Below are positions 14,455 to 25,577 of a stretch of DNA of 32,000 nucleotides, one piece after another. Every line of letters begins with the position of its first letter. Position 1 is the stretch's first letter. The notes under the pieces are model-generated. The model had not been told where the DNA came from and made no database searches. It saw nothing but the letters and a program-made list of their open reading frames with translations. This stretch comes from Candidatus Helarchaeota ASGARD archaeon Hel_GB_B (GTDB lineage: Archaea; Asgardarchaeota; Lokiarchaeia; Helarchaeales; HEL-GB-B), in the NCBI GenBank assembly GCA_005191425.1, contig SUPR01000008.1, forward strand, positions 1 through 32,000. The letters are read 5' to 3'. The position numbers and the translations under genes were made by a program.

Positions 14455-14859
14455 TTATAATTTATCCATTAATTCAGGATATTTTAGTCCTAAAATTCTT
14501 ATTGCCAGCCAAGCTGCATTTTGACTGTTATCAATTCCTACACAAGCTACTGGTACTCCTTTCGGCATTTGGACTATAGATAAAAGTGCATCTAGTCCAC
14601 CCAACTTCACATCTACAGGTACTCCAATAACTGGTCTCTTAGTTTTTGCAGCTATAATCCCTGGCAGAGCTGCAGATAACCCTGCAATTGCAATAAAGAC
14701 ATCACTATTTGAATTTTCTAAATATTCATCTAACTTCTTGTAGTTTCTATGAGCTGAAATTACTTGTAAATCGTATTTTATACCTTTCTCTTCCAAAATT
14801 GCTGTAGCTTTCTCCGCTATTTTCCTATCCGATTCACTACCTATTATTATTGAAATCAA
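14455..14859 (-). CDS. purE: AIR carboxylase / N5-CAIR mutase PurE (short archaeal form)
   Basis: [41 protein letters not shown] and NAA.LA.RIL. TTG start 7 nt after an AAGGTG SD (14867-14872). Confidence 0.9.
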
Positions 14860-15027: not shown

Positions 15028-15858
15028 ATGAAAAAAAAATTGATGATTTTGGGGTTAATTCTTCCAATTCTTCTTAGCCTACCAATTTCTATAGTACATA
15101 GTCAAATATTAAATATATGGGATGTTAGAGCCGGCAATGTCAGATATTATTATTTTTCCGAAGTCTATACTGGAAATGTAACTGGTATATCTACTCTACC
15201 ACCTCTTGAATATCATATTCTTTTAAATGAAGAACTGGGACAATTTTTTCCTTTTTACAATACAAGTGGTACCGATATTTATCTTCGTATTTTGATGCTT
15301 ACTAAAAGCCCAGTTGAAAATTTATTGACCCTCTATGATGATTCATATACAAATTCTAAAAGTGATTTCATTTTCGACCAAGATAACCTTAATTCATTCT
15401 TCAACTTAGGAGTTTCAGGAAAATTTGTATTACCAGTAAGAAATGGTTCAACGTTTTTCATCGCTTGGAATTTTCCATGGGGTGATAATTGGACAATATG
15501 TTGTCAAGAAATTAATTCTGATCCAAATTATAACTGCAGTTGGAGTGGCAATTTATTGATCGTTAATTGCACAAAAAATAACGTATTAGATCCAAATCTA
15601 AATATGCATTTTAATCTGACTAAAAGAATTGTCTGGGATAATTCGACTGGTTTTTTAGTTTCGTTATCTATGAAAAAATTTTACGAGAATAAATTCTGTA
15701 CAATAACAACAACAATTACGTCGAGCTATAGTTATTCTAGCCTTTCTGCATTCTTATCTATGGGACCACAAGACATTTTCTGGCCTATTGCGTTGTCAAT
15801 AAGTGGGATTGGGTTAGGGCTATCATTAGTCATTTTTTATAAAGTTAAGAAAAAGTAG
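15028..15858 (+). CDS. Secreted, C-terminally membrane-anchored surface glycoprotein (paralog 1)
   Basis: Basic-hydrophobic signal peptide, 8 N-x-S/T sequons, and a C-terminal TM helix followed by KVKKK. Confidence 0.8.
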   Translation: MKKKLMILGLILPILLSLPISIVHSQILNIWDVRAGNVRYYYFSEVYTGNVTGISTLPPLEYHILLNEELGQFFPFYNTSGTDIYLRILMLTKSPVENLLTLYDDSYTNSKSDFIFDQDNLNSFFNLGVSGKFVLPVRNGSTFFIAWNFPWGDNWTICCQEINSDPNYNCSWSGNLLIVNCTKNNVLDPNLNMHFNLTKRIVWDNSTGFLVSLSMKKFYENKFCTITTTITSSYSYSSLSAFLSMGPQDIFWPIALSISGIGLGLSLVIFYKVKKK

Positions 15859-15867
15859 GATTGATCA

Positions 15868-16641
15868 ATGATGAAAAGAAAAAATAAAATTATTGTTTTT
15901 AGTTTTTTAATGCTATTTTTTATTGTACAGCCTATATTCATTAGTACTTCATTTGCACAAATAGTCAATATTTGGGGAATTTCTGAAGGTGCAACGCGGT
16001 CTTATGATTACTATGAAATCTATTCGGGGTCAATTAATTCAATTACTACACATCCAAGGCGGACATACCGGATTGTAAAAATTTATGACAATGATGGAAA
16101 TAACTATACCGAACTAATTTTTCAAATTACTACGACCAATATATACGGATCGCCTCAAGTTTCAACTCAGGTACTAGATGATTCATCATCATCTTGGTCG
16201 TATAATGGTCTTGAAATGACTTCTTCAAACTATTACATGAGTAATCCTTTATATCCAATTTATTACAATGGGACAGATAGTATTGGGTTTAATTGGACTG
16301 CTGCAGAGGTGCATTTTAACACTGCAGACCCAAATTGGAACATGACTATATCAGGAAATATAGCAACTCTTAATAGGTCTTATAATGGGACGGAAAATGG
16401 CGCAGATTATGACGTTAATGTAATTATAAAGTGGAACATTGTAAGTGGATGGCTAATATCTTATGATGAAATAAAAACATATAATGAAACTCTAGGATAT
16501 TCAATCCATTACCAGACAACAATTGCTTTACCAACAGCTGGATTCTTACTGGATTGGAGCATTTTATTCAGTACATTTGCTATTGGTCTTGGTGCTGCTG
16601 CTGTTGTATTTGCTACTCTTGCTTATAAAAAATTTAAATAA
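15868..16641 (+). CDS. Secreted, C-terminally membrane-anchored surface glycoprotein (paralog 2)
   Basis: Signal peptide, 7 sequons, and a C-terminal TM followed by KKFK. It shares QI.NIW, R.Y..E.Y.G, DPN.N..SGN, W...G.L.S and IGLG with the upstream gene. The gap between them is 9 nt. Confidence 0.8.
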   Translation: MMKRKNKIIVFSFLMLFFIVQPIFISTSFAQIVNIWGISEGATRSYDYYEIYSGSINSITTHPRRTYRIVKIYDNDGNNYTELIFQITTTNIYGSPQVSTQVLDDSSSSWSYNGLEMTSSNYYMSNPLYPIYYNGTDSIGFNWTAAEVHFNTADPNWNMTISGNIATLNRSYNGTENGADYDVNVIIKWNIVSGWLISYDEIKTYNETLGYSIHYQTTIALPTAGFLLDWSILFSTFAIGLGAAAVVFATLAYKKFK

Positions 16642-16999: not shown

Positions 17000-17245
17000 A
17001 TGAAAAATTCTGTTTCTGTTAAGGACTGTTTAGAGGAAGCTGTAGGATCATTAGATCGAGCGTTAAAATATGCAATTGAACAAGAATCTAAGAAAGAAGT
17101 TTTTAATATGATTTTATCCGCGGCATTATATAATGAAGTGGGACTTGAAAAAACTGTTAAAAATATTTTAAAACAGATGTTGTCAATGGCAGATGTTTCT
17201 GGTTCAGTAAAAAAAGAGATATCTGAATTTTTAAAGAATTTCTAA
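17000..17245 (+). CDS. Small helical hypothetical protein (81 aa)
   Basis: ATG start with AGGA upstream, protein-like composition and flanking AT-rich non-coding DNA. Confidence 0.7.
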   Translation: MKNSVSVKDCLEEAVGSLDRALKYAIEQESKKEVFNMILSAALYNEVGLEKTVKNILKQMLSMADVSGSVKKEISEFLKNF

Positions 17246-17586
17246 TGTGTAAAAATGAATTAGAAAAAAGATTTTGGAGATTTTAATTTCTATTTTTAAA
17301 TAATTTAATTTGTAAAATTTTAACTATAATTTTTCAGAGAATTTTAAATATATTAGCTATATTAGCTAAAATTTCTATTAACAAAATAATCTTCGTTAAT
17401 TCAATTGGTTAATGACCTAAAAGTATTTTTTTACTGATTCTAATTTTTGTTTTTATTTATTTAATTGAGAAAAATTCTTATATTAATTCAAAGATTTGAC
17501 TTTAATATTAATATTATTTGAATAATTTCTTAAAATGATTTAAAAAATCTTTAATAAGCTGTTAGAATATTTGGAGAATTTTAATA

Positions 17587-18447
17587 ATGGCATGGGATGC
17601 TTTATTTAAACAACTAATGACTAATGAACTTAAAGATTTTGATGTTAGAACTAATGTTTCGGTCGGAAAATTACCTTTACAAATAGATGTTGTTATTATT
17701 AAACCCAAAATACCACCTAAAACTAATATATTGAGTTCGTTTACAAAGTATTTATCTAAAATTAACATAATTGAATTTAAAAGTACTCATGATTTAATGA
17801 AAAATGCTGATTTGACCAAATTAATCGGCTATGTTGGGTTATATTGTAATTCTAATGATCTGGGAATTCAAGATCTTAATAAAATTACAGCTTGGTACAT
17901 TATTCCATATGAACCAAAATTCCTTAGATTGCTAAATTTAACTAAAAAAGAAGATGGAATCTATTTATTGAATTTCTCATTTAAATTTTATATTGTGATT
18001 ATAGATAAGTTTCCAACCAAATTTGAAAATATTCCATTTCTTATGTTTTCGTCAAAAGAAAGGCTACGCGAAATACTTAAATTAATAATTCAAGAAAAAT
18101 CATTACAAAGATATTTAAGTGTCTCTTATTTATTATATCCTAAGGTGCTAAAAGAATTGACATCTAAAGAAGATTATTACACTTATAAAGAAATTCAAGA
18201 TAATATAAAATTTGCAGTAGAGGAATTAGGGGTAAAAAATGTAGTAGAAGCGGTAGGGCTTGAAAAGGTGGTAGAAGCGGTAGGGCTTGAAAAGGTGGTA
18301 GAAGCAATAGGGCTTGAAAAGGTGATAGAAGCGGTAGGGCTTGAAAAGGTGGTAGAAGCAATAGGGCTTGAAAAGGTGGTAGAAGCAATAGGGCTTGAAA
18401 AAATAGAGAAAATAATAAATAAAATAAAAGGTAAAATGAAAAAATAA
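17587..18447 (+). CDS. Rpn/YhgA-like PD-(D/E)xK nuclease (putative transposase family) with C-terminal 9-aa tandem repeats
   Basis: N-terminal WDALFK (compare Rpn HDxLFK), IDVVII (D34), IIEFK (E63/K65), K..GY..LY, then (VEA[VI]GLEKV)n. GGAG lies upstream. Confidence 0.7.
   Translation: MAWDALFKQLMTNELKDFDVRTNVSVGKLPLQIDVVIIKPKIPPKTNILSSFTKYLSKINIIEFKSTHDLMKNADLTKLIGYVGLYCNSNDLGIQDLNKITAWYIIPYEPKFLRLLNLTKKEDGIYLLNFSFKFYIVIIDKFPTKFENIPFLMFSSKERLREILKLIIQEKSLQRYLSVSYLLYPKVLKELTSKEDYYTYKEIQDNIKFAVEELGVKNVVEAVGLEKVVEAVGLEKVVEAIGLEKVIEAVGLEKVVEAIGLEKVVEAIGLEKIEKIINKIKGKMKK
18157..18447 (+). CDS. Putative intragenic small protein (96 aa, RpnS-like) nested in frame in the nuclease gene
   Basis: AAGGTG at 18142-18147 is followed 9 nt later by an in-frame TTG (codon 191). 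The same SD+TTG style is used for purE and the 24633 gene. Translation is not demonstrated. Confidence 0.35.
   Translation: MTSKEDYYTYKEIQDNIKFAVEELGVKNVVEAVGLEKVVEAVGLEKVVEAIGLEKVIEAVGLEKVVEAIGLEKVVEAIGLEKIEKIINKIKGKMKK
18217..18405 (+). repeat. Coding tandem array: 6 near-identical 27-nt units (18244-18405) plus 1 degenerate unit (18217-18243)
   Basis: Consensus GTAGAAGC(GG/AA)TAGGGCTTGAAAAGGTG, with units starting at 18244, 18271, 18298, 18325, 18352 and 18379. Confidence 0.97.
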
Positions 18448-24632: not shown

Positions 24633-25577
24633 TTGAGCAAGAAAAATAAATCCGAAAATAGTAAAGAATCAACTAATATGGAAGAAAAAACTAAGAAAAA
24701 AAGTAAAAAGGTTAAAGAAACACCACAAAAAACTGAAGTTCAGAAGAAAAAAAGGATTGCTTATAAAAAATTGACTATTGATTTTTGGGCTACCGATTTA
24801 CATGGCGAAGAAGTAGGTGTTAGACAAGATGCACAACATCGAGCAAAATCAAGGCAATTTTCGAAAGATATGGAAATTTATGGTGCTTTATTTGAAGATG
24901 GTAAAAAAGTAGGTTTTGTAGGCTGGCGTAAAGAAGCATGGGAAAGTGGGATTGATGAAGAAGATGAAGAAGTCGAAGGTGAAATATTAGGTCCAAGTAC
25001 TGCTGAAATTGGAAGGTTAATAATAAGATGTTTTACCAATGAATCAAATTGGATCGGTTCACTTGAAGAACAAGTCGTGCTTGAATTGCCTCGGTCATAT
25101 TATGAACCTTTACCTGTATTTACTATTATTATCCCACGATATGAATTTGTTATAAGGGTTGAAAGAATTTATTCAAGGACAGGAAATTTATACTGCACCA
25201 CTCTTATAACTAAAGAAAAAGGGGATAAAGAAAAAATAATGGATATTTTTGAAATTGATGAAAAATTGTTTACATTAGGTTCTGATTGGGTAGTAAGAAG
25301 ACGTGGGGCTAATAAAAAAGATATTGTAGCAAAACTTGATGGAAAAATTCTAAATGTTGGTGGTAAAGTAGATATTACAATTTATGATGAAGAATTAGCA
25401 AAAAATAGAGCATTTCGGATGTTATTAGTACTGTTTGCAGCAATGACAAAGTTCCATAATAAAGTAAAAAAGAAGATACGAAAAGTAAGAGAACAAATAT
25501 TTAATGGAGAAATTCAAATTAAACCGACCCACCAAGAACTTGAAATGATGCGAAACCCAAGGACCATTAGAAGATAA
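24633..25577 (+). CDS. Hypothetical protein with a LURP-one/scramblase (Tubby-C-like) domain and a Lys/Glu-rich N-terminus
   Basis: IDEKLFTLGSDWVV, VAKLDGKILNVGGKVDITIYD and a final hydrophobic helix MLLVLFAAM match the repeat pattern of YxjI/LURP-type proteins. AGGTG lies 7 nt before the TTG. Confidence 0.6.
   Translation: MSKKNKSENSKESTNMEEKTKKKSKKVKETPQKTEVQKKKRIAYKKLTIDFWATDLHGEEVGVRQDAQHRAKSRQFSKDMEIYGALFEDGKKVGFVGWRKEAWESGIDEEDEEVEGEILGPSTAEIGRLIIRCFTNESNWIGSLEEQVVLELPRSYYEPLPVFTIIIPRYEFVIRVERIYSRTGNLYCTTLITKEKGDKEKIMDIFEIDEKLFTLGSDWVVRRRGANKKDIVAKLDGKILNVGGKVDITIYDEELAKNRAFRMLLVLFAAMTKFHNKVKKKIRKVREQIFNGEIQIKPTHQELEMMRNPRTIRR

Follow-up and report, generated by a model that had tools for sequence, protein, structure and literature searches.

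The gene described here lies in a 32,000-nucleotide stretch of the genome of the Helarchaeota archaeon Hel_GB_B (the window, to which positions refer unless a contig or other locus is named). It is an ORF at 17587 to 18447 (+), the product of which (286 aa) we call the L form. Its N-terminus (MAW-D..FK) aligns with the starts of homologues, and a weak SD-like GGAG (17573 to 17576, +) is found 10 nt 5′ of the main ATG. In the models described below, residues 1 to 154 (17587 to 18048, +) form a PD-(D/E)xK nuclease domain and residues 155 to 190 (18049 to 18156, +) a helical linker that ends in the helix ...SYLLYPKVLKE; a repeat tail follows. The candidate catalytic Asp, D34 (codon at 17686 to 17688, +, in QIDVVI), and residues E63 and K65 of the E-x-K motif (E63-F64-K65, 17773 to 17781, +, in IIEFKS) are kept in at least 90% of 125 family representatives.

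At the core/tail junction, a putative internal SD, AAGGTG (18142 to 18147, +, codons K186-V187), is followed after 9 nt by an in-frame TTG, codon 191 (18157 to 18159, +). This candidate start would yield a tail-only product of 96 aa, the S form (18157 to 18447, +). The tail contains a 27-bp tandem array (18236 to 18401, +; 6.1 copies, 92% matches) whose unit encodes the 9 residues GLEKVVEAV/I, and the family alignment indicates that the 9-aa repeat is common to the whole family. A previous reading of this DNA, made from its sequence only, had described the ORF with D34 and E63-F-K65, the SD and TTG with the predicted 96-aa product, and a repeat tail behind the nuclease core; all of these were found in place when the sequence was read again. 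A strain variant of the ORF, found in three metagenomes, carries four synonymous changes and one conservative change; across four metagenome runs the SD and the TTG are unchanged in the strain with five SNPs, a distance too small to be informative. About 25 nt 5′ of the TTG, the codons for Y-L-L-Y read TTTATTATAT (18128 to 18138), a TATA-box-like sequence that might serve as the promoter of a short leaderless transcript and that is expected by chance, as the G+C content of the genome is 28%.

The neighbours of the gene are housekeeping genes rather than a defence island: two secreted proteins, an aminotransferase-like gene and gatB. Close relatives likewise sit among unrelated housekeeping genes, in differing contexts. 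A search of 301 Asgard genomes found the family in 24; a single genome had up to about ten matches, and fragments were numerous. The host genome contains a second full copy (L002, C109:21499-22308, -), as well as a broken N-terminal fragment with a TGA (C121:641-849); the two full-length paralogues have diverged and are not recent copies. A search for terminal inverted repeats around the gene yielded only AT-rich pairs with 70-88% complementarity. There were no repeated ends, and the upstream flank is unique in the host genome. Further upstream, the ORFs 15028-15858 and 15868-16641 (+) are adjacent paralogues that probably encode surface glycoproteins: both products (276 and 257 aa) have a signal-like segment at the N-terminus, numerous N-x-S/T sites and a hydrophobic anchor at the C-terminus.

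A nuclease family resembling Rpn

AlphaFold2, run with the family alignment, modelled the L form with a mean pLDDT of 89 and the nuclease domain with values above 90. Aligned with known structures by VIA-align, residues 1 to 154 matched McrC (Z 9.6) and NucS/EndoMS (Z 9.0) and, with lower Z, also Can2, Card1 and FokI. The E-x-K motif lies on a beta strand of the model, and residues 155 to 214 are helices. On this basis the modelled residues 1 to 154 can be assigned confidently to the PD-(D/E)xK (restriction-endonuclease) fold, of which the conserved acidic residue and the E-x-K/Q strand are both present. A Foldseek search of PDB and Swiss-Prot with the whole model returned weak, generic PD-(D/E)xK rows, with the E. 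coli Rpn proteins outside the best 30, which does not imply their absence; a sequence search of PDB with the family profile gave chance-level rows only.

The family comprises 413 representatives at 50% identity from Asgard archaea and bacteria, and its named members belong to Helarchaeota, Lokiarchaeota, Heimdallarchaeia and 'Promethearchaeota' MAGs. One branch, of high G+C content, seems to be bacterial, as are the nearest ESM Atlas clusters, and the junction motif W-E-E-V-x-x-M is kept in the members of this branch. No Pfam or NCBIfam model, including those for Rpn and related proteins (PF04754, PF12784, TIGR01784, PF27070 and PF14261), matched the 286-aa protein or any of 125 family representatives. 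No family member reached the PF11103 (DUF2887) or PF14261 (DUF4351) model, and a PF04754 search of the host genome found nothing.

The E. coli RpnL/RpnS proteins (RpnA-E and RpnP2; PF04754 and PF27070) are gene-within-gene toxin-antitoxin systems. RpnS can also be encoded by a gene of its own, e.g., ypaA behind rpnE, and such separately encoded RpnS proteins are known in Pfam as DUF4351; rpn genes are solitary, patchy and without defined ends (PMC10400941). The Asgard gene resembles them in its N-terminal PD-(D/E)xK nuclease, with a first helix of the form h-D-A-x-F-K and a strand h-h-E-x-(K/Q)-S, in the putative internal SD and start at the core/tail boundary, and in the hypervariable short repeat right behind that start. 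Separate tail genes 3′ of full-length copies recall rpnE-ypaA, and the gene is likewise solitary, patchy, multicopy and without inverted repeats. It differs from E. coli Rpn in its motif (E-x-K, E-x-Q in Rpn) and in its repeat unit, which has 9 residues that form separate short helices in a solenoid, whereas the 4-aa unit of Rpn lengthens one helix. The predicted tail fold is a short-helix solenoid, unlike the three-helix bundle of RpnS, and the predicted small form has 96 aa, compared with 49 for RpnA-S. The putative internal start is a TTG, and the host is an archaeon.

On visual inspection, WDALFKQLM at the N-terminus and IIEFKS in the strand are similar to HDALFKLFL and LIEHQS of RpnA. A comparison by hhalign of 128 family members with 122 Rpn sequences, the profile of which was shallow (Neff about 3), gave P=0.008 in local and 3.7e-4 in global mode, with probabilities of 5-16%, values that neither establish nor dismiss homology. 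Its confident core pairs residues 59-110 with RpnA 78-129, i.e., the E-x-K strand and the next helix. Among predicted models, AFDB clusters named TIGR01784 transposase/invertase, YhgA-like or Rpn family were matched with E values of 6e-6 to 4e-4, and ESM Atlas models with TM scores of 0.62-0.66 over 214-227 residues; some of the matched Atlas clusters carry PF14261 (DUF4351) or PF27070 (HTH_Rpn_C) on a minority of their members. Language-model embedding neighbours carry PF14261, PF27070, PF04754, PF11103 and PF12784, and the nearest neighbours by structure or language model are DUF2887/DUF4351 proteins of cyanobacteria and other bacteria, together with unnamed clusters of Planctomycetota and Bacillota. 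The whole protein therefore resembles Rpn-group models, a likeness that rests on predicted structures and automatic names.

As no Rpn HMM matched and the hhalign probability did not exceed 16%, the family is an analogue or a very distant relative of Rpn; it is best described as an unnamed distant relative or analogue, membership not being demonstrated. The description 'Rpn-like' given in the sequence-only reading thus holds for the fold, the motifs, the architecture, the hypervariable repeat tail and the stand-alone tail genes, and not for a match to Rpn HMMs.

Codon conservation at the core/tail junction

Genome-wide, the first ATG of long ORFs is preceded, at -15 to -10, by an approximately tenfold peak of SD 5-mers. 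An SD precedes 6.8% of 5′-proximal TTG codons versus 2.0% of interior ones, and 7.4% versus 2.1% of the corresponding ATG codons. The genome thus uses SD sites, with TTG as much as with ATG. In the window, TTG starts with an SD, which had also been noted previously, are seen at 24633 (AGGTGG, 6 nt, TTG) and additionally at 14859(-) (AGGTGA, 6 nt, TTG). The ORF itself has 16 in-frame ATG/GTG/TTG codons, each with an SD chance of about 2%, and only that at 18157 is preceded by one. The SD and TTG of this single gene are therefore not beyond chance, and the case rests on the comparison of homologues.

The DNA sequences of 45 Asgard homologues, which form 31 clusters at 50% identity, were aligned to the family HMM. 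The codons at column 191 were ATG in 10 homologues, TTG in 9, GTG in 7, ATA/ATT/ATC in 9 and CTG in 2, and several further homologues have a Met 1-4 residues away. Counting one sequence per 50%-identity cluster, the clusters not being fully independent, Leu at this column is encoded by TTG in 7 of 8 clusters, against 18% of Leu codons in the same genes (binomial P=4e-5), and Val by GTG in 4 of 5, against 26% (P=0.018). After the true start, column 191 ranks top of the 286 columns for the cluster-weighted share of ATG/GTG/TTG, and it heads the 75 columns ranked by the share of TTG/GTG in Leu/Val codons (88% versus 20% overall). In the 125 protein representatives, Met occupies it in 37%, compared with 2% overall, the highest value after column 1. 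Neighbouring synonymous sites vary freely in the homologue DNA. The closest relatives (72% and 54% identity) keep the TTG, one of them with AAGGTGA.

Of the 45 homologues, 40% have an SD match of 5 nt or more that lies 3-12 nt 5′ of column 191. The corresponding frequency was 5.8% at the remaining in-frame positions and 18% for the same peptide re-encoded by family codon usage, so that the K-E-V amino-acid motif explains the SD signal in part but not entirely. Per cluster, K186 is AAG in 8/8 (background 37%), E187 is GAG in 9/14 (41%) and V188 is GTG in 8/12 (26%). SD-forming synonyms are thus preferred 3-5 codons 5′ of column 191, and residue 190, outside the SD and just before the start, follows background codon usage. 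In the ORF studied here, the SD is one codon further 5′ (K186-V187) than the family columns.

A prediction for an independent set, eight metagenome homologues with Leu or Val at column 191 and each less than 50% identical to the first set, was set down before their DNA was retrieved. Leu was TTG in six of seven (P about 1e-3, given that TTG makes up 24% of Leu codons in these genes), the seventh having CTC followed directly by TTG; the single Val was GTG, and an SD match of at least 5 nt was found in 6/8. These comparisons of coding sequence indicate that start-capable and SD-forming codons at the junction are conserved well beyond codon-usage expectation. If homologues had no start codon or SD at the junction, the internal start proposed from this one gene would lose its footing; the proposal survived this comparison in both the discovery and the independent set. 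As far as comparative codon data go, the family therefore has a predicted internal start at the core/tail boundary, where RpnL/RpnS have theirs.

In about one-third of the homologues, among them the paralogue of the host genome, column 191 is occupied by ATA/ATT/ATC, CTG or some other codon, so that the start is either absent from part of the family or, in these genes, non-canonical. The paralogue L002 has ATA at the junction column, five nt after a strong GAGGTGA; in that gene either a non-canonical start is used or the start has been lost.

The repeat tail and separate tail genes

In the AlphaFold2 model, each 9-aa repeat forms one 8-residue helix, and the tail folded alone is a solenoid of 8-residue helices (pLDDT 82). 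The tail-alone model had no convincing counterpart in PDB or the Atlas, the searches yielding no PDB match at E<1 and only TPR-like rows with TM scores of 0.5 or less. No C-terminal domain of the HTH_Rpn_C/DUF4351 type was detected in the tail with PF27070 or PF14261, a point that the comparison of folds would not settle by itself. A complex prediction for the L form with residues 191-286 scored below the mark, deciding neither way.

The number of repeats varies between close relatives. In clusters at 90% identity, alleles that are 95-100% identical elsewhere have lengths of 265, 283 and 301 aa, or of 280 and 316 aa, and these gaps correspond to 2-4 whole 9-aa units. Since contigs of four metagenomes break inside the array, short-read assembly error may add to the variation. 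A hypervariable short repeat in the shared tail is thus a further feature in common with RpnL/RpnS, with a unit of 9 rather than 4 aa. Four large proteins of 1064-1365 aa (P0066, P0079, P0118 and P0121) also contain stretches that match the 9-aa repeat (E 1e-14 to 1e-26). Such surface proteins with Listeria-Bacteroides repeats were not retained as relatives, the likeness being probably at the level of the repeat only; it may stem from a module common to these proteins and the tail, or from convergence of low-complexity sequence.

As is known for RpnS, separate tail genes occur both beside and apart from long genes. At one locus (L046), a full-length copy (304-1095, +) is followed by a small tail gene (1214-1468, +) preceded by AAGGAG and 8 nt, the ATG of which falls on the junction column, where the adjacent long gene has GTG. 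The small gene carries 4 repeats, compared with 1-2 in the long gene, and upstream read-through suggests that this tail gene is the remnant of a duplicated full-length copy. Tail copies also lie directly 3′ of full-length genes at L049, L040 and L039. Orphan tail genes were found as well: P0176 is a 78-aa gene that starts at the junction and has no nuclease remnant upstream, and P0310 and P0311 are similar. P0169 has lost the nuclease core and kept the tail. Finally, two related natural variants (L009 and L068) are split by a stop codon in the linker; both halves have remained open reading frames, that of the tail starting with an ATG. A small-protein search with the tail as query gave 3 hits, word-based searches being a poor census for repeats. 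In the window, 340 nt 5′ of the gene, an 81-aa ORF (17000-17245, +) encodes a sequence weakly similar to the tail (LKYAIEQ...EVGLEKTVKNI), with a pairwise BLASTP E value of 0.014 against the tail and 8 bits with the tail HMM (E 1e-4, one target). This ORF may be a decayed gene of the stand-alone tail type, or the similarity may be due to chance.

One product or two

Taken at the level of sequence comparison, this is an Rpn-like family that has no Pfam model and has a conserved putative internal start. The gene would then give rise to two proteins, a 286-aa PD-(D/E)xK DNA endonuclease with a helical linker and a repeat tail and, through AAGGTG and the TTG at codon 191, a separately translated 96-aa tail; from the codon data, the small protein is probably made. 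By analogy with RpnL/RpnS, its most likely action would be to pair with the same tail in the long form, thereby holding the nuclease inactive. We lean slightly towards the view that the shared tail allows the small protein to act on the long form in the manner of Rpn, and we infer its antitoxin role from the same analogy. The number of repeats might set which small form fits which long form, and release of the nuclease, e.g., on viral infection, would damage DNA; a part in antiviral defence is a tentative suggestion, its chances clearly below even.

It is possible, though somewhat short of an even chance, that these genes represent a previously unnamed intragenic toxin-antitoxin nuclease family of Asgard archaea in which the repeat solenoid serves as a tunable specificity code. 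Several observations speak against an antitoxin made from within the gene: the homologues that have no canonical start codon, among them the paralogue; a tail solenoid unlike the RpnS bundle; the unmatched Rpn HMMs and low hhalign probability; the housekeeping neighbourhood; and the contribution of the K-E-V peptide, which alone raises the frequency of SD-like sequence to 18%. The unequal repeat numbers at L046 (4 versus 1-2) also do not fit a matched pair.

The gene might instead have one product, the start- and SD-like sequence being a relic of the fusion of a nuclease gene with a tail gene, or acting through mRNA structure or ribosome pausing. The split and stand-alone tail genes show that two-gene forms exist, and the missing canonical start in about one-third of homologues also speaks for this explanation. 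A relic would, however, decay at synonymous sites, whereas the TTG/GTG and SD codons are retained between clusters that share less than 50% identity, as well as in the independent set, while adjacent synonymous sites vary freely, which makes a single product unlikely. If two products are made, the small form might also be a required, stoichiometric subunit of the active enzyme, as is Cas11d, which is made from an internal start in cas10d and is a subunit of the type I-D Cascade. The internal-start data would look identical for such a subunit and for an antitoxin, and complementary internal-start products of this kind are known (PMC10400941). The split variants, with their tail-less nuclease ORF, also fit a subunit as well as an antitoxin. 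The orphan tails (P0176, P0310) and the core-less P0169, on the other hand, resemble orphan antitoxins more than orphan subunits, and hypervariable repeat numbers are typical of conflict systems, so that we regard an obligatory subunit as distinctly unlikely.

The patchy occurrence of the family, its many copies and fragments, the unrelated contexts of close relatives and the transposase annotation of some structural neighbours would also suit a nuclease or transposase of a mobile element. Its truncated internal-start product would limit the activity of the element, as the Tn5 inhibitor protein, likewise a truncated internal-start product, limits that of the transposase. This is very improbable: inverted repeats around the gene are absent beyond AT-rich noise, the flanks are unique in the genome, and the paralogues of the host are diverged rather than recent copies. 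Rpn proteins themselves were long annotated as transposases, and there is no sign that they transpose autonomously (PMC10400941).

Were the antitoxin reading true, this would be the first archaeal gene-within-gene antitoxin, a branch of the Rpn principle that is either independent or very old. Should the small protein be produced and keep the nuclease in check, the economy of drawing an antitoxin from the tail of its toxin would reach the Archaea, and with them a family of 413 representatives that has no Pfam model. The 9-residue repeat would then be a second, structurally different case in which repeat number acts as a specificity dial. Genes within genes are usually missed by annotation, and a comparative codon test here brought out a candidate in an uncultured archaeon. 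The gene is a concrete candidate for catalogues of Asgard defence systems, which are now blind to this family; in PADLOC, even RpnA lacks a model.

Of the 301 Asgard genomes searched, 3 contained canonical PF04754 proteins, all of them weak matches, compared with 24 for the family described here. Two of them, in other Asgard genomes (L064, 1369-2370, +, and L066, 1333-2301, +), are not matched by the HMM of the Asgard family. They have E-x-Q in place of E-x-K and four-residue KEG[IKM] repeats, and share with the family the architecture and a Met near the junction. From their sequences, these two genes are canonical-looking archaeal examples of the classical Rpn architecture.
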